Shown piece after piece: positions 17,403-55,794 of a DNA stretch of 64,000 bases (position 1 is its first letter; each line of letters opens with the position of its first letter). Location of the stretch: positions 1 to 64,000 of the IMG/VR virus record IMGVR_UViG_3300049734_000086. One strand, 5' to 3'. The DNA comes from a virus. A model generated the notes under the pieces. It worked only from the letters and a program-made list of their open reading frames with translations. It had not been told where the DNA came from and searched no databases. The position numbers and the translations under genes were made by a program.

Positions 17403-18233
17403 TCAGTTCAGGGACTCCAGCCCGTAATCCATCCCGGTGATGGTGTTGGACGCCGAGTTGGCCGACCAGTCCCCGGTGAAGGACAGGGCGGTGTCGGCGG
17501 TCAGGTCGACGGTCACGGCGGCCGGGGCGTCGAAGCCCGAGACGCCATACACGTTGGTCGACACGGCCGTCGACGACGTATGCACCGCAAGGCTGCCAAA
17601 TACCAGCAGCGTGCCCGTGGCACCGTTCAAGCGGGTCTGGATGTCCAGTACCGTGCGCCAGTTGACGTTGGTGACGCCCGAGCCCATGGTGATGGCTTCG
17701 GTGTTGGCCAGGATGGTACCGCTCACCCCGCCCCACCTGAGGGCCCAGACCATGGTGGGCGTGCCCGTGGTACTGAGCTTCCCCGAGCACGTCAGCCGCA
17801 TCCGGCGGCCGTCCTGCATGTAGTTGGCCGGGATGGTCACATTGGGGAAGAGAATGGTCTCGGTCGTGGTCGTGTGGACCGCCGTCCCATCGGCAGTCGA
17901 CCATGCGATCAGCTCCTCCCAGTACTGGCGGCTGTTCTGGATGTCCAGCGGCCACTTCCTGGGATTGAAGGGCCGCGCCGACTTCGGGATCCCCAGCTTC
18001 TTCTCCAGCTCCAGGATCCGGTTGGTCAGCAGCCCCGTTTCCGTCATCCGGGTCCACCGGGGGTCGATGCCGGTGCCGCCGCAGTGGCGGTCCCGGGAGG
18101 CGTGACGGGTGACCCGGCCCGAGGCCCCAGGGAGGGTGAGCAGGGAGCCGAGGCCGGAGCAGTCTGGACACCGGGGCCCGTGCTGGCCTTGCAGGTTGTG
18201 CGGCGGTCGTGCGCCGACAGTAGCGAGTGACAT
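17403..18233 (-). CDS. putative virion protein with N-terminal CxxCxGxG zinc-finger-like segment
   Basis: CPDCSGLG...HCGGTG followed by a Thr-rich beta domain. Confidence 0.55.
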   Translation of the reverse strand: MSLATVGARPPHNLQGQHGPRCPDCSGLGSLLTLPGASGRVTRHASRDRHCGGTGIDPRWTRMTETGLLTNRILELEKKLGIPKSARPFNPRKWPLDIQNSRQYWEELIAWSTADGTAVHTTTTETILFPNVTIPANYMQDGRRMRLTCSGKLSTTGTPTMVWALRWGGVSGTILANTEAITMGSGVTNVNWRTVLDIQTRLNGATGTLLVFGSLAVHTSSTAVSTNVYGVSGFDAPAAVTVDLTADTALSFTGDWSANSASNTITGMDYGLESLN

Positions 18234-18241
18234 GGTGTGGG

Positions 18242-18547
18242 CTACTCCTTCTCCGGTTGCGGGTGATCGGTCCTGTCGGCGGCTGGGGTCTCGGTGTCGG
18301 CATCGGCGGTGTCGGGGAGTGCAGCCAGTCCCTGACGCACCCGCTCCAGGACGCCTTCACGGGCTTCGAGCATCCGCTGCCGGATGATGTCGGGCTGGTC
18401 CATCGAGATGCCCTCCTGCGAGCACCGCTTGACCGCATCGGCCATAGCCTTCTCGATCTGGGCGCTGACCGACGCGCCCCCGCCCCACTTGGCGGCGCTG
18501 GACAGTGTGGCCACGGCGGACACAATCTTGGGTTCCTTCTTGGCCAT
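18242..18547 (-). CDS. hypothetical protein (101 aa)
   Basis: Start MAKKEPK behind GGAGG. Confidence 0.7.
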   Translation of the reverse strand: MAKKEPKIVSAVATLSSAAKWGGGASVSAQIEKAMADAVKRCSQEGISMDQPDIIRQRMLEAREGVLERVRQGLAALPDTADADTETPAADRTDHPQPEKE

Positions 18548-18549
18548 GG

Positions 18550-19020
18550 TCAGTCCTCCGTGATGGTCGAGGCGGTGGTCAGGCGGGGCGTGATGCCGTC
18601 GCCGGTGACGATGTTGGGAGTGACCGTGCCCTTGTAGAGGATCTTGCCGGTCGAGGACGAGGCGGTGCCGACGTGGGCGTGGGTGGCGGTACCCGAGCCC
18701 CCGGTCCCGGCCGGGAAGTCGATATTGGCCACCGGGGACACACTGTTGGCGGAGACCGTCCACCCACCCGTGGTCCTGGCGACGGCGACCCGGGCGTAGG
18801 AGGTGTAGGTGATCTCGTTGGTGGTCTGGTCGCCCGCCTCACCCGGGTCGGCCGTGTGCAGACCCATCTGCAGGTTGGCCAGCGGGGACGAGGCCGCGTT
18901 GTCGGCGATGTTGGCGATGGCGGTGGCGTTGAAGATCAGCTTCAGCAGGTCGTTCTCGAAGGTGTTGCCCTTGGACCGTGCCATGCTGACGAGCGGTCGC
19001 AGGCGAATGGGGTAACGCAT
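18550..19020 (-). CDS. head/tail fibre-type structural protein with 14-aa leader
   Basis: SKGNTFENDLLKLIFN...LHTADPGEAG...NEITYTSYARVAV, a common phage virion family; AAGGAG RBS. Confidence 0.75.
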   Translation of the reverse strand: MRYPIRLRPLVSMARSKGNTFENDLLKLIFNATAIANIADNAASSPLANLQMGLHTADPGEAGDQTTNEITYTSYARVAVARTTGGWTVSANSVSPVANIDFPAGTGGSGTATHAHVGTASSSTGKILYKGTVTPNIVTGDGITPRLTTASTITED

Positions 19021-19093
19021 CAGATACTCCTTGAGTGGGTGACGGGAACCGCTGGTGTCTGCATGGTCAGTCTGGTCAGCACAGTCATCGGAA

Positions 19094-19981: not shown

Positions 19982-22900
19982 CTAGTCCACCAGGACCAGT
20001 TCCGGTTTCGCGGGCTGTGGATCCGGCGCGGGGACATCGGAGGGCCGTGCCCCTGCGTAGACCATGGTGTCGAACTCCGGGTTCTTGAGCGGCGTCAGGA
20101 AGTGCTTGGTGTGCCACGCGAGGAGGGACTGCGCCTCCTCTACGGTGCGGGCGTAGAAGACCTCGGGTTTCAGTTGGTGCGTGTTGAGACGTGGACGCCC
20201 CGCGCCGACACCCCAGAGGACCTCGAAGCCGACGCCGAGCCACTTCAGCGCCAGTTGGTACGACTTGTAGGCCAGGGGGTGGAGGCGGTGCGCCGGGTCT
20301 GAGAAGCCGTACTTGTCGTAGTAGGCGATGGTCGAGGTCAGGTACTGGTAGATCTTCGGCGTGAGCTGGGAGTCCGCGCCTTCGTATCCGGCCAGGACGG
20401 TCAGATCGCGCATGATCAGCACGTAGGCCAGCTCCCTGGGCTCTGGATCCTCGATCAGCTCCCGTTGCAGCAGGGGGAGGTTCCGCTGCGCCATCTTGTG
20501 GATGCGAATGGGTTCCGTTTCGTAGCCGTAGTGGACGATGTTGACCGAGGGCACATCGAGGGCCGGGAACACCGCCTCGTTCTTCTTGGTCTCGGGCTGT
20601 TCGTGGACCAGTCCGTAGAACTGGATGCCCCGGTTGGCGCGGAAGACGCGACAGGGGACATCGAAGAACTGGTCGAAGTCGAGCATCAGGTGGTGCTGCC
20701 GGATGATGTAGCCGAGATAGGGCCCCGCGCCGGTCAGTAGCGTGTGAAGCAGGTGCCCGCCCTGGAGATGTTCGTCGGCGTCAATCCACAGGATCCAGTC
20801 GGCTTGGTGGTCCTGCTCGGCCAGTCTGACAGACTGGTTGCGGACGGCCGAGAAGCCGCATTGCGGCCACTGGAGCCCCAGGGCGGTATGGTCGTGGACG
20901 TGGACGTGCGGGAACTGGGCGGCGACCGCCTTGGTCCCGTCGGTGGAGCCCGTGTCGATGATGACCGTGGCGTCGACCAGCGGCCAGATCGAGTGGAGGC
21001 ACCTGAACAGCCACTCCTCGGAGTCCCGGACCATCATCGTGGCGATGAGGCGCTGGTAGGGCCGGGTGGTCAGAATGGTGTGCCAGTGGTCGCAGGACAT
21101 CGACGGGTGAGCCTCGACGCCAGCCTCGGCCCGCCGCCACTGGATGATCCAGTGCCCGCACGAGTTCCCCCGGGGGCTGGGCCCGAAGTCGATGTGCTCC
21201 CACTTGGAGTGCTGCTTGCCCTGGAACAGCATCGTGATGTCCCGGAGCTGGAAGTGGTGCGTGTGGCCGCGTTGGAGCCGGGTGCGGAAGGGGATGTGCT
21301 CGGACAGGGGGCCGTGGGGGCAGGTGATGAGGCACAGGCCGCCGGGCTTGACGTGGGATTCGAGCCAGTCGATGACGAGGTGAGGCTCGGCGGTGTGTTC
21401 GAGGTACTCCCCGCAGAAGACCGCATCGTACCCCTCGCCGGGGACGGGCAGTGAGGGCATGGCGCTGAGATTGGCGTCGAGGAAGGTGACCCGGTCCTTC
21501 AGCCCCTCCTTGTCGATGGCGGTGAGGGCTTTGGCCAGGACGCCTTGCGAGTAGTCGACCAGACATACGCGGAGATCGGGCATGGCGCGGAGGGCCGCCA
21601 AGGCCAGACTGCCATTGCCGCAGGCCACGTCGAGTAGGGTCTTGATCCCCGCCTCCTTGAGGTAGTTGACGATGGCCAGCAGCCGGTAGGAGGTCCTGGC
21701 CTCCAGCTCGGTGTCCATCGAGAACTCCGCGTAGTCCTCGGCGGTCTGCTCCTCCTGGCGGATGACACGGTCGCAGAACTGATGCGCCTGCCACGCCTCC
21801 TGGGCCCATGGCTCGGTAGCGGTGTCGACGTGGCCTTCCCGGACAGCCGGGCCCTCGCCCTGGCGCTCCCAGTCGATGATGAGGTCACGGGCCACCAGCT
21901 TGGCTGCCACATGGTGGTCGTCATGGAGCAGCCGCCGGAGGACCTTCAGCTTCTCGGCCTGGTACCTCCGCTCGAACGACTCGACCAGGAACGTCTCCCA
22001 CTCCTGGGCGATGGTCTCGAACGTGTAGGCCGGGAACACGTGGGCCTTCCCCGCCTGCTGCATGTCGGAGTACAGCTCGTCGGCCTCCTCCTGGCTCTCC
22101 CCCTCGTCCCCGCCCGAGAGCGTGAACACGGCTTCGAGGAACGAGTCCTGGTAGGCCGCACTCATGGCGTCCCCTTCGATCAGGACGCCCGCGCCCTCGC
22201 CCACGGTCTCGGGGAGTGCGCCCTTGTAGGAACCGATCAGGACGCAGCCGCAGGCCTGGGCTTCCAGGGCGGCGATGCAGGAGGTCTCGGCGAAGTTGTC
22301 GACGCCCGGGTAGAGCATCAGGCGGGACGTGGTGAGGAGCTGGTAGAGGTCCGGCTTGGCCAGATTGCCGTGCCAGACGATGCCGCCGACCTTCTCGTTG
22401 ACGGCCGCGACCCGGCGGTCGTACTGCTCACAGACCTTGTGCCAGCCCTGGGCGTCGTACATCGAGTCGTAGCGACAGAGATGGAGTTCAGCGTCCGGGT
22501 AGCGTTCGCGGATCCGGGGCCACATCTTGAGCAGGGGGTCGAGGCCGCGCTCGGGACGCGAGATGTAGCAGTACTTGTGGCGGTTGCGTACCGGGTGAGG
22601 GACCTCGCGCCCCTCGAACGCCGCCAACCCGCCAGCGAGAGCTGCCTCGATGGACGAGGGCTGGTAGTGCTCGGGCCACACCGGGATCAGCGTGTGGTCG
22701 AAACCGTTCTTGGTCACCCACGACGGCGTCCCCCCGACAATGTCCTTCTGCTTCCCTTCCCACTGCTGGCGGTGGTACTGCGAGACGTAGACCAGGGTGT
22801 CGACCTGGGTCAGGGCCGAGGCGACCTGGGCCACGTCCGCGAGCATGTCCTGGTTCCACAGCAAATTGAGACCGGCCCGGGTCCTCATGGCGAACGGGCT

Positions 22901-23221
22901 GGTCATACGGAGGCTGACGAACACGTCCGGGGCGCAGACGCTGAGGGTTTCGGGCAGGTGCTCGGCCGGATGCCAGGAGACCCCGTCGTACTCACTGGGG
23001 TCCGTGGGGTCGAGCGTCAACTGCGCCGCAAAGATGTGGACATCATGGCCGCGCGAGGCAAGGTGCTTGGCCAGTCCGACGGCGGCCGACTCACTGCCGC
23101 CCAGGGAAGTCTTCCCCTCGATGACGGCACGGGAAAAGGGGACGGACTCGATGTAGAAGACGATGTTGAGGTTGGTCAGACGATAGTCGTCTGGCCGCAC
23201 GCCACTCGGAAGCATGATCAT
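19982..23221 (-). CDS. GT4-type glycosyltransferase + SAM methyltransferase + GT2 glycosyltransferase fusion
   Basis: LGGSE, SRPERGL, ETSCIAALEAQACG (GT-B); LLDVACGNG, EYLEH (class I MTase); DTGSTDGT, WIDADE, HYGY (GT-A). Confidence 0.88.
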   Translation of the reverse strand: MIMLPSGVRPDDYRLTNLNIVFYIESVPFSRAVIEGKTSLGGSESAAVGLAKHLASRGHDVHIFAAQLTLDPTDPSEYDGVSWHPAEHLPETLSVCAPDVFVSLRMTSPFAMRTRAGLNLLWNQDMLADVAQVASALTQVDTLVYVSQYHRQQWEGKQKDIVGGTPSWVTKNGFDHTLIPVWPEHYQPSSIEAALAGGLAAFEGREVPHPVRNRHKYCYISRPERGLDPLLKMWPRIRERYPDAELHLCRYDSMYDAQGWHKVCEQYDRRVAAVNEKVGGIVWHGNLAKPDLYQLLTTSRLMLYPGVDNFAETSCIAALEAQACGCVLIGSYKGALPETVGEGAGVLIEGDAMSAAYQDSFLEAVFTLSGGDEGESQEEADELYSDMQQAGKAHVFPAYTFETIAQEWETFLVESFERRYQAEKLKVLRRLLHDDHHVAAKLVARDLIIDWERQGEGPAVREGHVDTATEPWAQEAWQAHQFCDRVIRQEEQTAEDYAEFSMDTELEARTSYRLLAIVNYLKEAGIKTLLDVACGNGSLALAALRAMPDLRVCLVDYSQGVLAKALTAIDKEGLKDRVTFLDANLSAMPSLPVPGEGYDAVFCGEYLEHTAEPHLVIDWLESHVKPGGLCLITCPHGPLSEHIPFRTRLQRGHTHHFQLRDITMLFQGKQHSKWEHIDFGPSPRGNSCGHWIIQWRRAEAGVEAHPSMSCDHWHTILTTRPYQRLIATMMVRDSEEWLFRCLHSIWPLVDATVIIDTGSTDGTKAVAAQFPHVHVHDHTALGLQWPQCGFSAVRNQSVRLAEQDHQADWILWIDADEHLQGGHLLHTLLTGAGPYLGYIIRQHHLMLDFDQFFDVPCRVFRANRGIQFYGLVHEQPETKKNEAVFPALDVPSVNIVHYGYETEPIRIHKMAQRNLPLLQRELIEDPEPRELAYVLIMRDLTVLAGYEGADSQLTPKIYQYLTSTIAYYDKYGFSDPAHRLHPLAYKSYQLALKWLGVGFEVLWGVGAGRPRLNTHQLKPEVFYARTVEEAQSLLAWHTKHFLTPLKNPEFDTMVYAGARPSDVPAPDPQPAKPELVLVD

Positions 23222-23982: not shown

Positions 23983-24325
23983 TGGGTCCCTCCGGGTGTG
24001 GGTGTGTTTCGAGATCCGGGCTGCAGGTGCAAGTTGTGCGCCTGAATCTCAATTCCCCCAGCAGCCGCGTCAGTACTTCACGTGCCCCCTCCGGCTGCCC
24101 GGTTTCCCCTGCAAACGGCAGGAGGCTTTCCGAGAGTGACCCGAGGAGCGCACACGACTCTTCGATTTGCTTGAGGACCGCCGGGTTCTGATTCTTGAGC
24201 GCATCGTCGGCCTGCTCCAGTCGTTCACGGATCCGCTTGGTGCGATGCGGACTCGCGCCCTTGTCGTCCTGGGCCTGCAAGTCCAGTTCGCGTAGCACGG
24301 GGTCGAAATACACTCTCTGTCGCAT
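23858..24325 (-). CDS. hypothetical protein
   Basis: GGAGA RBS downstream of a predicted promoter; 3' end overlaps the next gene. Confidence 0.5.
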   Translation of the reverse strand: MRQRVYFDPVLRELDLQAQDDKGASPHRTKRIRERLEQADDALKNQNPAVLKQIEESCALLGSLSESLLPFAGETGQPEGAREVLTRLLGELRFRRTTCTCSPDLETHPHPEGPNDRQDQTGAQEAAGRDQSQSSDRRTSPGPQAGGKRAAGARG

Positions 24326-24377
24326 CGGGGGTCTCCCAGGGGTCTGCAGCGGTCGTCGTGGCTCAGTCGGCGCGGGG

Positions 24378-24412
24378 AGTGTACGCTAAAAGGGTGGGTG
24401 TACGCAAAAGGG
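24378..24412 (-). promoter_or_regulatory. sigma70-like promoter overlapped by a direct repeat
   Basis: TTGCGT-18-TACACT; plus strand shows GTGTACGC(T)AAAAGGG twice. Confidence 0.5.
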
Positions 24413-24484
24413 CGGTGACCGGGTTTCTGCCGATCACCGCCAAAGTCAGTAGCGGGTTGTAACCGCCTTGACGCTACCACACTC

Positions 24485-24711: not shown

Positions 24712-25230
24712 CTAGGACCGTCCGCTGCCGCCCGAGGTGCCCGTGGTGGCCAGTTGCTTGGCGGCGGGGATTCCAGCTTCCTGCTCTCGCTGTCTGATCT
24801 TCAGGGCCTCGGCCTGGGCCATGGAGAGCGTGCCGAACTCGGCGGGCTCGTTGCCGGGCAGAGGCACGCGACCGCCCTGGTCCAGTCCCTCGTCCAGCTC
24901 CTCGCCCGTGTGCGGGTCGACGGCAGGCGGGGCGGCCATGGCGCGGACTTGCTGAATCGGGATGACCTCGCTGGTCCTCAGCACGAAGCCCTGGGGCACA
25001 CGTACCGTGACGTGCATGCCGTGGATCTCGTGGACAACCAGCCCGCCATAGAGACGGTCACCCTTCTTGACAGCCATGTCGGCGACGGCCTTCTCCGACT
25101 CCTTGTCGGCCTTCTTCTCGTCGCGCGACTTGTCGGCTTGCGCTTCCTCGAACGCCTCGGTGCGGCGCTCGGCATCGAGTTCCTGGCGCTCGATGACAGG
25201 ATCAACCGGCGGTTCTTCCTTCTTGGCCAT
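24712..25230 (-). CDS. hypothetical protein downstream of capsid gene
   Basis: 172 aa, charged N-terminus, GGAGG RBS. Confidence 0.75.
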   Translation of the reverse strand: MAKKEEPPVDPVIERQELDAERRTEAFEEAQADKSRDEKKADKESEKAVADMAVKKGDRLYGGLVVHEIHGMHVTVRVPQGFVLRTSEVIPIQQVRAMAAPPAVDPHTGEELDEGLDQGGRVPLPGNEPAEFGTLSMAQAEALKIRQREQEAGIPAAKQLATTGTSGGSGRS

Positions 25231-25343: not shown

Positions 25344-26528
25344 CTAGGCGCTGCGGGCCTGGAACATCTGCGCTTCCTGGTGCAGTTCCAGCGTGTACTC
25401 CCCGATGATGTGACGCCGTTCGTTGTCTCCCGTCTTGGCCAGATTCTGTCGCTGGAAGTTCCGGCCGGTGAGCGGCATGACGAAGATGCGGCGCGTGTCC
25501 ACGCCCATCATGGCCTGACGCGGCATCCAGGGCGAGACGATCTTGATCACGTCGCCGAAGTCGGTCGTGACTCGCTCGATGACCCGCTGCACGGTGCGGT
25601 CGGCCTGCTCGACCTGGATCTTGCTGGCGTTGGTGGCCGAGAGGGCCGCCGACCATTCCGAGCCCATGAGCAGTACGTTGAGGTTCCGCGCGCCAGCGTT
25701 CCACCCGACCTGCATCAGGGCATTGGTGTAGAACAGCGGGTCGGCGGTGAAGGAGCTGTTGACGATGATGCTGTTGTTGGTCGTCAGGATCGAGCGCAGC
25801 CCGTTCATGGTGCGGTAGGTGTTGTCGTCACCCAGGGAGCTGATGGCCACGGAACGGATGACGGCCTTTTCGAGGTCGCGTAGCAGTTCGATGGTCCGCA
25901 GGGTTTCCTGGTTCTCGATCTCCGAGCCCACGTTCGGGCGGGTCAGCACGGCCTGACGGGTGCCGCTGATCCGAATCGGCTTCTTGAAGATCTGGGTGAA
26001 GTTCTGCTTCGGGGTACGGGGCCGCGACACGTCACCGTCGGTGTCGTCGCCTTCCTTCTCCGCCGTCGAGATGACGAAGAGGGTACCGCCCGGGGCCAGG
26101 GAGTTCACACCCTGGGGGGTCAGACCGATGTTGCGGCTGACCAGGAGGCTGTTGGGCCCGGGAATCGAGGAGACCTGCACGATCTCACGGTTGCCCGAGG
26201 GCGGCTCGAACTCCAGGAGCATGCCGACCTGCAACAGGTGCGCGAGGCCGTCGGTCTGGAACCCGGTGGCGGCGGTGGCGCTGTTGATGGCGGTGGAGTT
26301 GATGATCCGGTCGGGGCCAATCGCCTGCTCGAACCACTGATGCACGGGCGAGATCGCCGGGCGCAGGGGCTGGGGCAGGAGGTCGAGGAACGGCGTCTCG
26401 AACGGGGACGCCAGGAGCAGGATTTCCGAGATGTCGGTGTCGATGACCTGGAAGTCATCGGAGGTGGCCAAGCCGGTGAAGACAGCGGCCCGGCTCACCT
26501 GCGGTGAAAGTCGGCGCGGGTATTTCAT
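25344..26528 (-). CDS. major capsid protein (HK97 fold, SU10/DUF5309-like)
   Basis: ETPF, HQWFE, EGDD, NFTQIFKKPIRISGT, TDFG, LAKTGD..IIGEYTLE; AAGGAGG RBS; downstream terminator. Confidence 0.9.
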   Translation of the reverse strand: MKYPRRLSPQVSRAAVFTGLATSDDFQVIDTDISEILLLASPFETPFLDLLPQPLRPAISPVHQWFEQAIGPDRIINSTAINSATAATGFQTDGLAHLLQVGMLLEFEPPSGNREIVQVSSIPGPNSLLVSRNIGLTPQGVNSLAPGGTLFVISTAEKEGDDTDGDVSRPRTPKQNFTQIFKKPIRISGTRQAVLTRPNVGSEIENQETLRTIELLRDLEKAVIRSVAISSLGDDNTYRTMNGLRSILTTNNSIIVNSSFTADPLFYTNALMQVGWNAGARNLNVLLMGSEWSAALSATNASKIQVEQADRTVQRVIERVTTDFGDVIKIVSPWMPRQAMMGVDTRRIFVMPLTGRNFQRQNLAKTGDNERRHIIGEYTLELHQEAQMFQARSA

Positions 26529-26876
26529 AGATGTCGGGCCTCCTTAGCGGCCTGAAGCAACCCTAGAAACGGACTAAGCGCGGAAGTCGGTTCCCCGTGA
26601 TTGTTACGGCCTGCGGGAACAGGCGGCCCTCCGTCACAGTGGCCGAGGAGGTCCCGGCAATCGGCGTACGGGTCGTCAGGATCGGCGAGTGGTCTTCGTG
26701 GTCAGTCTGGCGGGTCGTCGGGGGTCAGCGTCGGGAGTCGTCGAGGTCGTCAGGAGGGCGGGCCGGTGATGGCTGGGCACCGGCCCGCCGCGCAATGGCT
26801 ACCAGGGAGGGGTGGGAGTCGAGGACCACCCGGACCAGTTAGCACCGAGCAGTCTACACTACTCGTCAAGCCCGTT

Positions 26877-27833
26877 CTACTTCTGGGCCGCCTTCTTCTT
26901 CTCCTTCAGTTCCTGGACCTTGGCGGCGGCCACCTTGCTGGCCTGCATGTCACCCAGATCACCCGTCTTCTGGGCCTTGGCGCGGGCCTCCTTGTGGACC
27001 GTTTCGGCCGCCGCGATCTCCTTGTCGATGTCCGACACCGTCGCGCCCGTGTCCGAGCCTGACGCCCCGGCCCCACCGGCCCCACTGGGCTCTCCGTTGG
27101 CCTCGGCCTTGTACATCCAGGGCTTGTCGTGGCGGTGCTTCTCGATCAGGTCCTTCACGGTGACGGGCTTCCCGGCCTTGAGCAGTGGCTTGCCGTCGTC
27201 GCCGAGGATCATGGGCTTGCGCTCGTTGTCCAGCGTCATACGGGCGGCGAGCAGGGCCGCTACGTCACTGGGGTCGACCGCGCCCTGGGCGGTGGCCTCC
27301 AGGGCCAGGGCGTTGAAGCAGCGGTCCTGCCGAATCTCGCCCATCAGGGTCTCGATGGTCTTCTGCCGCTCACTGAGCGTCGAGTCGTGGTCCGCCTTGA
27401 TGGAGGCGACGACTTGGTCGTACTTCCCCTTCTCCTCCAGGGCGAGCCGTTCCCGCTCCTTTTCGGCCGCCTTGAGCCGTTCCAGTTCCTTGGCCTGCTC
27501 GGGGTCGGGGCCGGGGTTCTGCCGCCGCCACTGGGCGAGACGGTTCTCGATCAGTTCATCGAGCTGCGTCTGGAGCTGGGGCTTGGCGCGCAGGATCTCG
27601 GTCAGATTGTCGGCGAGACGGTCGGCGCCACCGCCCTGGTTGCCGCCCTGGGTGCCACCGCCGCCAGCACCCCCATTGCCGCCTTGGCCCTGCTGGCCAG
27701 ACTGGGCTGCATCGGCAGCGGCACTGCGGGCGAGAGGGAGGGGGAGGCCGTACAGTCGATAGGCGTGGGTCTTGGTCGTGGTCTTGGCTGTCAACGTCAT
27801 CGTACGAATCACCATGGTCGGCGGTCTCCTCAA
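26877..27833 (-). CDS. capsid scaffolding protein
   Basis: Gly-rich linker, ELIENRL coiled coil, KPWMYK..GAGGAG motif; upstream of MCP; start uncertain. Confidence 0.8.
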   Translation of the reverse strand: MRRPPTMVIRTMTLTAKTTTKTHAYRLYGLPLPLARSAAADAAQSGQQGQGGNGGAGGGGTQGGNQGGGADRLADNLTEILRAKPQLQTQLDELIENRLAQWRRQNPGPDPEQAKELERLKAAEKERERLALEEKGKYDQVVASIKADHDSTLSERQKTIETLMGEIRQDRCFNALALEATAQGAVDPSDVAALLAARMTLDNERKPMILGDDGKPLLKAGKPVTVKDLIEKHRHDKPWMYKAEANGEPSGAGGAGASGSDTGATVSDIDKEIAAAETVHKEARAKAQKTGDLGDMQASKVAAAKVQELKEKKKAAQK

Positions 27834-27834
27834 G

Positions 27835-28152
27835 TTACGGTTTTTCGGTCGGATTCTGGCCAGCCCCGCCCGATGGCGGGCTCATGGCTTTATGGACGGC
27901 CGCCCCGGTGGCGCGCGTGAAGCCGAAGACGCCAGCAGCCGATGTGGCCACGACGATCCAGGCGGCGAAGTACGAGAACAGTTGCGGGCGGCTCACCATG
28001 GCTTCCCGGCTGTAGCCCCACATCCCGCAGCCGATCGCGGCGATGGCCAGGACCAGCAGGGGGCCGTACTTGTCGGGGACCCCGCCCCATTTGACCAGAC
28101 TGGTCAGGGCGACGACGGCGGTGGAGACGGCGGCGATGGCTTCTGCGTCCAC
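27835..28152 (-). CDS. holin-like membrane protein
   Basis: Three hydrophobic segments; in lysis cluster. Confidence 0.6.
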   Translation of the reverse strand: MDAEAIAAVSTAVVALTSLVKWGGVPDKYGPLLVLAIAAIGCGMWGYSREAMVSRPQLFSYFAAWIVVATSAAGVFGFTRATGAAVHKAMSPPSGGAGQNPTEKP

Positions 28153-28161
28153 GGAACCTCC

Positions 28162-28425
28162 CTATTCGACGTGTCCACCACGGGCGAAGGCCTCGGTGGT
28201 GTCGTGCAGTAAGTACTTCACAATCTGCCACACCAGGGGCCCGAACTCCCGGGCGGCGGAGCCCATGGCGATGTAGCTGAGCGCCTTGAGTTCGCTCGCG
28301 TCGAAGACCGTGGCGGTGCCCCACAGGGCCAGAGCGAACACCCCTACGAGGCCCGACAGGATGCCGAGCTTCTTCCACGTGACCGTCGAGAGCTTTTGTA
28401 GCCGATACGGCTGTGAGACCATCAT
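28162..28425 (-). CDS. small membrane protein
   Basis: AAGGAG RBS; LGILSGLVGVFALALWG hydrophobic segment. Confidence 0.6.
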   Translation of the reverse strand: MMVSQPYRLQKLSTVTWKKLGILSGLVGVFALALWGTATVFDASELKALSYIAMGSAAREFGPLVWQIVKYLLHDTTEAFARGGHVE

Positions 28426-28436
28426 GGTCAGTCTCC

Positions 28437-53178: not shown

Positions 53179-54093
53179 GTGGCCCGCACCTACAACTGGT
53201 CCTGGCCCCCCAAAGGGGTCAGGCCCGAGGCCTGGAAAGCCACCGAGACCATCTGCAAAGAGGCGATCAAGCGGAGCGGGACCACCACCTGCTCCTGCGC
53301 CTTCTCCACCGGCAAGGACTCGCTGGCGATGATGATTGCGCTCCACCACTTCTTCGAGACCGTGGTCCCCGTGTTCTGGTACCACGTGCCCAACCTCGGG
53401 TTCATCGAACGGAGCCTGGAGTACTACGAGCGGGTGTTCAAGACCCAGACGGTCAGACTGCCTCACCCGTACCGCTTCTACCACTTCTCCTACTTCCAGC
53501 TCCAGCCGCCCGACCGGATCGCGGCCATGGACTGGATCATGGCGGAGGTTCCTGATTTCACCATGGACTCCCTGTTCGGCGAGGTGCGGACCCAGTACGG
53601 CCTCGACAAGCTGGGAGGCTCGAAGATCGGGGCGATGCACGCCACCGGGATCCGGGCGGCCGACTCCCCGATCCGGGCCAGTCTCTACCGCAAGCACGGC
53701 GGGTTCGCGCCCGCTGGCCTGCTGTTCTACCCAGTGATCACCTGGAACCTCGACGACATCGAGGCGGCCTTGGACCACACCGGCCTGATGCTGCCGCCCG
53801 AGTACCGCTTCATCGGCCGCAGCTTCGACGGCATCATGCGGCGCTACACGACACCAGTGAAGGAGCATTGGCCGGAGGACTGGGTCAAGATCCTCGACGA
53901 CTTCCCGCTGGCCGACCTGGAGTTCTTCCGGGCCGAGAAGGTCACACCGCCGGAGCTGCTGAAGCCGCTCTACAAGTTCATCGGACGCGAGGGACCGAAG
54001 ATGAGCGATACTCTCCGCCGGGAGGAGACCGCACATGCAACCGACTCGACTCGCCCTGGTGACCGCCCTCGTCGCCGTCGCCCTGACCGCTAG
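53179..54093 (+). CDS. PAPS-reductase-like (PP-loop) protein
   Basis: AFSTGKDS, TGIRAADS..R, YPVITW, GRSFDG. Confidence 0.8.
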   Translation: MARTYNWSWPPKGVRPEAWKATETICKEAIKRSGTTTCSCAFSTGKDSLAMMIALHHFFETVVPVFWYHVPNLGFIERSLEYYERVFKTQTVRLPHPYRFYHFSYFQLQPPDRIAAMDWIMAEVPDFTMDSLFGEVRTQYGLDKLGGSKIGAMHATGIRAADSPIRASLYRKHGGFAPAGLLFYPVITWNLDDIEAALDHTGLMLPPEYRFIGRSFDGIMRRYTTPVKEHWPEDWVKILDDFPLADLEFFRAEKVTPPELLKPLYKFIGREGPKMSDTLRREETAHATDSTRPGDRPRRRRPDR

Positions 54094-54982
54094 AGGCCAC
54101 ACGCAAGTCCGCGAACTCGAACTGCTGGTGGTGATGGACGGGGAGTTCACCCAGCGCATCGCCCCCACCACGCCCCAGCAGTGGCTCGACGCCCTGGTGA
54201 CGGAGTCCAATGTCTGGTGGGAGAGGGACCTGGGCATCCGGCTCAAGGTCGTCCGCCTCGACGCCTTTCCCGACCCGGCGACCGACCCGTTCACGGCGGC
54301 CACGGACAACCCACAGGGCACGCTCGACGAGATCTCGGCCTACGGCAATGCAGTCAGTACCCCCCGAGACGCCGCGCATCTGTTCACCGGCCGCGCGATG
54401 ATGTACGGCGGCTACACCTACGTCGGGGTGACGTGCAAGCACCCGGCGTTCAGTTATGGCTGGTCGCAGTTGGGGTTCTGGGGCTACAACTGGACGATTG
54501 CCGTGGCGAGCGTGGAGCTGGCCCACCAGTTGGCGGGTGTCTACTACGACAACATCCCGAGCTGTGACGGGGCCTTGTTGGGCAAAGGGCCAGCGCCGGA
54601 GGACTACCACCAGTACTGGTTCTGCGCCGCAGCCAAGGCCGACATCGACGCCCACTTGGCGGCCAACCCCCCATGTCTGACCACCGAGGGCGGACCCCCG
54701 CCCACCGACACGCAGTCCCCAGTGGTCAGTATCATCGAGCCGTCGGGCAATAGGATCCCGGCGGGCCCGACCTTCACCATCTCGGCCCAGGCCACCGACA
54801 ATGTCGCCGTGGCGCGGGTGGACATGGCGGTCAATGGCGTGCTGGCGTGTACCGACGACCTGTCGCCCTACGCCTGCACCGCCCCGCAGAACGCGAAGAA
54901 CAAGAACTACCGGATCGAGGTCCGCGCCTACGACACGGCGGGGAACGTCGGGACGGCCAGTAAGACGGTACGAGCACGATGA
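54035..54982 (+). CDS. secreted reprolysin-like pseudo-metalloprotease with Ig-like domain
   Basis: Signal peptide; RDAAHLFTG, G.TYVG..C; zinc motif altered to VELAHQLAGVYY; DT..P.V, ATDNVAV..V, AYDTAGN. Confidence 0.7.
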   Translation: MQPTRLALVTALVAVALTARGHTQVRELELLVVMDGEFTQRIAPTTPQQWLDALVTESNVWWERDLGIRLKVVRLDAFPDPATDPFTAATDNPQGTLDEISAYGNAVSTPRDAAHLFTGRAMMYGGYTYVGVTCKHPAFSYGWSQLGFWGYNWTIAVASVELAHQLAGVYYDNIPSCDGALLGKGPAPEDYHQYWFCAAAKADIDAHLAANPPCLTTEGGPPPTDTQSPVVSIIEPSGNRIPAGPTFTISAQATDNVAVARVDMAVNGVLACTDDLSPYACTAPQNAKNKNYRIEVRAYDTAGNVGTASKTVRAR

Positions 54983-55531: not shown

Positions 55532-55596
55532 GTCGCGTCAAGGACCCAGCCGGTCAGAATGCTCACCCCGGAGCCAAGCGGGGAGGGAGACAGAAT

Positions 55597-55794
55597 ATGC
55601 AGTACGCATTCACCGGCAAAAATCTCGTGTCCATGGCGTGTGTCCCGGCGACGGGCGGGGGCCGTGGTGGCCGTCGGCGTCGAGCGGGTCGTCAACCGAA
55701 TGGCCGTCCCCTCCTGCGTGGGGCTGCGGCTCGGAGAAGTAACGCGGCGTTCCGGCGTCGACTTCTGAGACTCCAGGAGGCGGGGATCCGCTAA
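55597..55794 (+). CDS. Arg/Gly-rich small protein with 14-aa leader
   Basis: MQYAFTGKNLVSMA-CVPATGGGRGGRRRR; GGAGA RBS. Confidence 0.65.
   Translation: MQYAFTGKNLVSMACVPATGGGRGGRRRRAGRQPNGRPLLRGAAARRSNAAFRRRLLRLQEAGIR

Follow-up and report, generated by a model that had tools for sequence, protein, structure and literature searches.

What do the major capsid protein and a predicted fibre subunit of a single phage gain from beginning with nearly the same 14 residues? The question is raised by IMG/VR virus record IMGVR_UViG_3300049734_000086, a 74,430-base record with direct terminal repeats and a guanine+cytosine (GC) content of ~65% that derives from soil metagenomes, of which we analyzed bases 1–64,000 (the window). 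An earlier note on this DNA had proposed a 14-residue N-terminal leader common to three proteins: the capsid protein, a fibre-type protein, and an arginine-rich peptide. The three peptides are encoded exactly as that note gave them (capsid, 26528–26487, minus strand; fibre, 19020–18979, minus strand; and an open reading frame (ORF) beginning at 55597, plus strand). The likeness held for the coat and fibre proteins, which agree at 8 of the 13 positions following the initiator methionine, and failed for the 55597 ORF, where the core of the motif is absent. Judged from sequence comparisons, the coat/fibre tag is a translated peptide under purifying selection, and it is probably a leader that is read, and perhaps cut off, by one factor shared between the two proteins.

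The coat gene lies at 25344–26528 on the minus strand. Its product matched Pfam PF17236 (E 1e-59, 202.8 bits against a cut-off of 24.1, residues 25–388) as well as phrog_1328 and, by a profile match that covers the whole fold and exceeds the curated cut-off, is an SU10-type major capsid protein, with the body of the SU10_MCP family encoded at 25344–26486 (minus). The 14 codons that precede this body (26487–26528, minus; MKYPRRLSPQVSRA) match the motif ATG-MRN-TAY-CCN...GCN exactly and are themselves preceded by the Shine-Dalgarno sequence AAGGAGG (26539–26545, minus), which stands 10 nucleotides before the ATG and belongs to the strongest class, found before 0.1% of start-like triplets. Most capsid homologs (63 of the 86 parsed) start with M-[P/A]-F-[T/S]-G, which corresponds to residues 15–19 of the protein studied here, and the codon at this usual start position of the family is GTC, which is unable to initiate.

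The fibre tag, MRYPIRLRPLVSMA, is encoded by 14 codons at 18979–19020 (minus), with the Shine-Dalgarno sequence AAGGAG (19027–19032, minus) 6 nucleotides before its ATG. The complete ORF (18550–19020, minus) matched Pfam PF23140, "podophage GP4 fibre I protein gp80" (E 7.6e-14, 52.6 bits, cut-off 27), and the top Foldseek match of its AlphaFold model was GP4 fibre I (8JOU_a; probability 1.00, template-modelling scores 0.51/0.57, 26% identity). By profile and predicted fold, the body encoded at 18550–18978 (minus) is a chain-fibre subunit of the GP4 gp80 type, from which we infer a tail-fibre role in this phage; the previous designation as a fibre-type protein was right, and the product would be a part of the tail rather than the head. 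The tag itself was unstructured in the model (predicted local distance difference test values of 48–55). Of the 120 best fibre homologs, 98 began with M-SKGNTFEND, one residue before Ser16 of the tagged protein. Because most homologs in both families start at this junction, the tag is in each case an add-on fused directly before the canonical N-terminus.

Together, the two tags define the motif M-[K/R]-Y-P-x-R-L-x-P-x-V-S-x-A, in which Tyr3, Pro4, Arg6, Leu7, Pro9, Val11, Ser12, and Ala14 are identical and position 2 is Lys or Arg. When the capsid tag was compared with all 2,995 start-anchored ORFs in the genome, its next-best match reached 5 of 13. In 4.5 million arbitrary pairs, approximately four unrelated pairs reached 8, and the other high-scoring pairs fell within one internally repeated gene. 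The local BLOSUM62 score between the coat and fibre tags was 42, as compared with a mean best score of 27.8 (standard deviation 2.6, maximum 37) for shuffled queries against the whole proteome. Within a gene map of ~94 genes, drawn from codon usage and GC content at third codon positions (GC3), equal scores between any of the 94 predicted gene starts came only from Lys/Thr low-complexity pairs, and 7 of 300 permutations reached 8.

The upstream start codons also look genuine. Ribosome-binding sites had been reported before all three leaders and are indeed present, that of the 55597 ORF being GGAGG at 10 nucleotides. GGAG-type Shine-Dalgarno sequences precede most predicted gene starts of this phage, and AAGGAG, AGGAGG, or better at a distance of 3–12 nucleotides is found before 1.3% of all genomic ATG/GTG/TTG triplets; both tag ATGs have such a site, and neither of the internal alternative starts (GTG 26498 in the capsid gene and ATG 18984 in the fibre gene) does. 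Translation from an internal methionine, which would undo the proposal, is further disfavored by the fibre homolog P0125, in which Leu replaces this residue. It does find support in the record's own gene call, which begins the fibre at Met13 (P0126, 144 residues) and which we weigh below the evidence from ribosome-binding sites.

Two lines of comparison support selection on the peptide. First, synonymous codons differ at 5 of the 8 shared residues and the five unshared codons agree at 3 of 15 bases, indicating that the tag DNA has diverged to saturation with the amino acids kept, and no similarity was detected between the DNA upstream of the capsid gene and that upstream of the fibre gene. Second, a search that scored the first 40 residues returned two fibre homologs of 156 residues, from other samples, that carry the tag (P0124, MRYPTRLRPAVSMA; P0125, MRYPSRLRPPVSLA). 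These proteins are 83–84% identical to the fibre subunit here overall and 79–86% identical in the tag, where they vary at positions 5, 10, and 13 only, all of them positions at which coat and fibre differ, as expected if selection acts on the translated peptide. Neither tag contained a variant in contigs from two soil DNA runs and two soil RNA-library runs, and the only change nearby was a synonymous one in capsid codon 16; in the RNA-library contigs, depth over the capsid gene and its tag was the highest in the region. In a tree of mature fibre domains, the protein here grouped with leaderless homologs and not with P0124 and P0125, which hints weakly that tags and bodies can recombine. Fibre homologs of the cultured phages Lacusarx and vB_CbaS-RXM had no tag.

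The leader is thus conserved in the two fibre homologs; the capsid leaders of relatives are very variable, and homologs of the 55597 ORF lack the motif. The closest capsid relatives (55–80% identity) have extensions of 13–26 residues that are basic, nearly devoid of Asp and Glu, and otherwise variable. That of the nearest relative, P0005, reads M-S-P-R-Y-L-T-P-V-V-Q-R-A and is clearly homologous to the coat tag; P0006, P0007, and P0010 are further capsids with homologous tags. Some capsid "leaders" of relatives may be gene-calling artefacts, because one relative (L120) has GTG at the canonical position. A metagenome scan produced one useful capsid contig, L119, which has an upstream in-frame extension and ends before any fibre gene, and a scan of GTDB genomes together with 401 Planctomycetota genomes returned leaderless capsids only, at 30–36% identity. 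No close relatives emerged from IMG/VR, whether the query was the capsid, an alignment of capsids, or the glycosyltransferase discussed below, and the degenerate DNA motif had no other instance in that database. As a separate observation, the leaderless SU10-type capsid gene at 30–36% identity (loci L096–L118) occurred in 43 of the 401 sampled Planctomycetota genomes, which points to a widespread prophage or phage-derived element of this phylum.

Other members of the fibre family carry N-terminal extensions of different kinds. Approximately one-tenth of gp80-type homologs (P0127, P0132, P0133, P0140, P0141, P0153, P0154, P0169, P0211, and P0215) have another conserved N-terminal domain of 65–72 residues with the motif ...AHKPGRNTIK... 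and no Met at the usual start, and further homologs have add-ons of 26–51 residues. The N-terminus of the gp80-type family is a hot spot for appendages. Close to the fibre gene, a 276-residue product (17403–18233, minus) contains a DnaJ-type CxxCxGxG zinc-finger motif (CPDCSGLG) and might be an assembly chaperone.

The third proposed carrier fared poorly. The arginine-rich ORF of 65 codons at 55597–55794 (plus; MQYAFTGKNLVSMA) agrees with the fibre tag at 6 of 13 positions, mostly through the run LVSMA, and with the capsid tag at 4 of 13; it lacks Pro4, Arg6, Leu7, and Pro9 and has more than two mismatches to the degenerate motif. Its GC3 is 0.64, its codon score is -0.24 per codon, whereas every predicted gene scores -0.06 or higher, and CGT accounts for 7 of its 15 arginine codons as against 10% genome-wide. 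The high-GC3 signal over its arginine-rich part belongs to the +1 frame (ORF 55559–55768), and the 55597 ORF uses codons in the manner of an out-of-frame reading. When 1.8 billion representatives were scanned in full, however, two homologs of equal length came to light (P0248 and P0249; 80% and 59% identity), in which the arginine-rich C-terminal half is conserved, the N-terminus is variable, and the motif is not kept. The conserved half looks like an arginine-rich RNA-binding motif; the region around 55597 matched no Rfam family and had no unusual RNA fold. From these comparisons, the ORF is doubtful as a gene and unsupported as a carrier of the tag.

A weaker form of the leader had also been seen in the scaffolding protein (26877–27815, minus; phrog_206, E 2.5e-17), which starts at ATG 27815 behind GAGGAG and has a basic 32-residue head ending in ...PLARSA, followed by a Gly/Gln-rich linker. 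This resemblance does not rise above background, as the scaffold segment YGLPLPLARSA lies outside the top matches of either tag. The scaffolds of this phage (27720–27815, minus) and of L119 (1063–2058, plus), which are 37% identical, both have a basic N-terminal Y-R-x-[Y/F]-x-L-x-P...R-S-A followed by a low-complexity linker, a pattern that may represent a separate, conserved motif of scaffolds.

The idea that the leader routes a basic peptide into the head has phage T4 as its model. T4 places a capsid targeting sequence on internal proteins, from which it is removed by the prohead protease gp21. The resemblance lies in a shared N-terminal peptide (~10 residues in T4) on several proteins of one phage. 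The T4 system, however, depends on a scaffold core and on a phage protease with the cutting site (L/I)xE, and neither such a protease nor such a motif is found here: the junction has no xE, and of the two true carriers the second, a fibre subunit, is external. As the basic ORF is open to doubt, whether taken as a gene or as a carrier of the motif, the routing proposal is not supported.

In the mechanism that we favor, one trans-acting cytoplasmic factor would read the tag as an extended peptide. This factor would most likely be an endopeptidase acting on the bond that follows the invariant Ala14 (...V-S-x-A/), freeing the canonical N-termini of the coat protein (AVFTG..., AVFTGLATSDDF...) and of the fibre subunit (RSKGN...) before or during assembly. 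Relative to this cut, small residues occupy -1 (Ala) and -3 (Ser). Because no phage protease is recognizable, the enzyme would be the host's, and the tag may then copy a host pro-sequence. The tag does not qualify as a Sec or Tat signal peptide: it is a polar, basic stretch of 14 residues and lacks the hydrophobic core of ~10 or more residues that follows the basic N-region of such peptides.

The search for a phage enzyme extended, by Pfam and PHROG scans, to essentially all ORFs of 45 or more codons. At this sensitivity no prohead protease is present, as had been noted before, and none of these ORFs matched Prp (DUF464/PF04327), C39, S49, U35, or other head-protease families. Two small membrane proteins fill the slot between portal and scaffold that is the usual place of head proteases. 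Their genes (27835–28430, minus) share one frame with a single stop between them, and one product is weakly holin-like; a 162-codon ORF at 27890–28378, considered as a protease in this slot, proved to be an out-of-frame artefact over the two membrane-protein genes. The only peptidase-like ORF, at 54035–54982 (plus), scored just above the cut-off as reprolysin-like (M12) and continues into a bacterial immunoglobulin domain. Its zinc motif, VELAHQLAG, lacks the first His of HExxH. We rejected this product as the tag protease, as an export-signal-like hydrophobic N-terminus and a degenerate zinc site make it a poor candidate for acting on cytoplasmic virion proteins; it may be an exported pseudo-protease or adhesin.

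The closest known system, and an apt analogue as the earlier note had recognized, is that of staphylococcal phage 80alpha, in which two non-homologous virion proteins carry a short add-on before the mature start. In 80alpha, the leaders of capsid and scaffold are removed by the host enzyme Prp (MEROPS C108), a protease that acts on ribosomal protein L27 as well, trimming it (PMC5744158, PMC9405229). A Prp motif has also been reported on the major tail protein of phi13 (PMC5744158), giving the sharing of a leader between head and tail proteins a precedent. As in the soil phage, the 80alpha leaders have 13–14 residues, occupy the extreme N-terminus directly before the mature start, and end before Ala, and 80alpha has no head protease of its own. 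The motifs, by contrast, are unlike, M[KR]YPxRLxPxVSxA here as compared with MLxx(D/N)LQ(F/L)F/A(S/H)KK in the Prp system (Tables 1/2, PMC9405229), and the carriers are coat and fibre subunit rather than coat and scaffold. Long L27 has been reported from certain phyla only (PMC9405229), and a soil phage of 65% GC probably has its host elsewhere. For these reasons, we treat the tag as a possible analogue of the Prp system and not as a member of it. By analogy with 80alpha, cleavage of the leader after Ala14 by a host enzyme is quite possible, and we would place it somewhat short of probable.

Several observations weigh against such cleavage or against a shared leader altogether. The residues past the putative cut differ, being AVF in the coat protein and RSK in the fibre subunit. 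The whole tag is kept, including residues 2–4 and its exact length, which would fit recognition of an intact N-terminus at least equally well. The motif is unrelated to that of L27 and Prp, no candidate protease emerged from the Pfam and PHROG scans of phage ORFs, and the record's own gene call places the start of the fibre at Met13. Finally, a hidden Markov model and 8-mers derived from the capsid leaders of other phages recovered the coat tag of this phage but found the fibre tag no better than expected by chance. The fibre tag thus resembles specifically the capsid tag of this phage, and support for a common leader comes down to one genome and two short fibre contigs.

The fibres to which the second carrier is related bear on a different explanation. 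In GP4, VP1, and A1002, gp80-type subunits form dimers on a rope protein to build chain-like tail fibres, and the GP4 fibres dock on the capsid (PMC13730344). The subunits of these phages (gp80 of GP4, gp11 of VP1, and gp40/gp41 of A1002) belong to the same family as the protein here by Pfam profile and fold. A1002 gp41 additionally has ~30 extra N-terminal residues without density, for which its authors suggested cleavage (PMC13730344). No similarity of a fibre extension to the coat was reported for these phages, however, and the A1002 coat, modelled from residue 3, has no add-on (PMC13730344).

The tag might accordingly be kept on the virion, as a docking or assembly peptide that binds in the form of an extended strand, on both proteins, to one common site in the capsid lattice, a cement protein, or an assembly chaperone; a fibre tag that mimics the N-terminal tag of the coat could then anchor the fibres. 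The alternating pattern R6 L7. P9. V11 S12. A14 with its two prolines would suit an extended binding strand, and the exact length and extreme N-terminal M-[K/R]-Y-P are conserved in a tag that is unstructured on its own in the AlphaFold model. The frequency of other add-ons (~26–72 residues) on gp80-type subunits indicates that this N-terminus tolerates functional appendages. The chain fibres of GP4-type phages fold back, and docking of GP4 fibres onto the capsid (PMC13730344) offers a parallel; in 80alpha the scaffold leader is required for assembly, whereas its cleavage is not (PMC5744158). Leaderless relatives nevertheless assemble without any tag. Moreover, the N-terminus of a coat protein with the HK97 fold usually faces the interior of the procapsid, which would make a shared external site less likely. 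On balance we consider a retained peptide rather unlikely, though next in rank to a cut leader, and decidedly unlikely in its most specific form, in which fibre subunits would have copied a strand-like coat lattice peptide so that, by molecular mimicry, chain fibres plug into coat sites and in this way dock onto the head. The stretch between the tagged genes includes an ORF for a 1079-residue enzyme (19982–23221, minus), which is not a tape measure; Pfam resolves it into GT4 glycosyltransferase, S-adenosylmethionine-dependent methyltransferase, and GT2 glycosyltransferase domains. Its position invites the proposal that the tag is a recognition or acceptor peptide through which this enzyme modifies Ser12 or Tyr3 of both proteins, and the closest matches of its GT2 domain are enzymes that glycosylate proteins or peptides, namely GmaR (E 6e-17) and SunS/ThuS-like enzymes. 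The model is that of mycobacteriophages, in which terminal extensions of capsid and tail-tube subunits are glycosylated, reportedly at the C-terminal ends (Freeman et al. 2023). That these phages themselves encode the glycosylation of capsid and tail-tube proteins is documented in work cited in PMC12363180. Homologs of the enzyme (27–30% identity), however, lie downstream of leaderless capsid genes in the distant relatives L090, L091, L124, and L125, whereas the enzyme is absent from the 6.5 kb downstream of the L119 capsid locus, which does have an in-frame extension upstream. Ser12 is replaced by Gln in the nearest capsid relative, P0005. Glycosylation of the tag is very unlikely in our estimation; the distribution of the enzyme suggests that virion glycosylation has been conserved across this phage group.

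It is also conceivable that the tags have no common function and reflect chance or the relic of an old duplication of 5' ends, with one or both proteins starting internally. The likeness was picked post hoc from one genome, the permutation p value is ~0.02 when low-complexity starts are included, and the degenerate motif has no second instance in IMG/VR. The variability of the capsid leaders of relatives, the GTG at the canonical position in L120, with its implication that some leaders are products of gene calling, and the record's own start at Met13 of the fibre all point the same way. What makes this explanation unlikely is that independent fibre homologs keep exactly the shared positions, that eight residues survive where synonymous sites are saturated, that strong Shine-Dalgarno sites stand before the upstream ATGs only, and that P0125 has no internal Met from which to start. 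Both genes encode high-copy structural proteins, and the depth of RNA-library contigs over the capsid gene and its tag is the highest in the region, observations that would also fit a nascent-peptide or early-codon element setting very high output of the two most abundant virion parts. Such an element, however, would not explain why amino acids rather than nucleotides are conserved, and this as far as residue 14, well past the earliest codons; the tag has the same GC content as the genome, and the DNA upstream of the two genes is unalike. We give a translational role of this kind only a slender chance. A leader read by one shared factor thus continues to be the explanation that we prefer.

If the leader is cut, the maturation of virion parts by a borrowed host processing enzyme, or by some other factor, extends to phages outside the Firmicutes and employs an unrelated signal there, and the phage tag could be used to look for a host pro-sequence not yet described, together with its protease. 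If instead the tag is retained, it would represent a new way to tie tail fibres to the head. Under either reading, the tag is a small and well-defined element that can easily be tested.

The wider gene map places both tagged genes in a structural block on the minus strand (~57 to 40,000), which is followed by a replication block on the plus strand. No close relative was found among the cultured phages compared, and comparison of the terminase gave no pointer to the host. Amid the small genes that follow the capsid gene, ~500 bases at 23983–24484 have no clear coding frame by GC3, yet RNA-library contigs cover the region. The genes located directly after the capsid gene (24712–25230, minus) and the fibre gene (18242–18547, minus) encode proteins that both begin with MAKKE and share EKA[VM]AD.AVK but are otherwise unalike (E 0.58), and the gene that follows the capsid gene of L119 starts with MAKKD.

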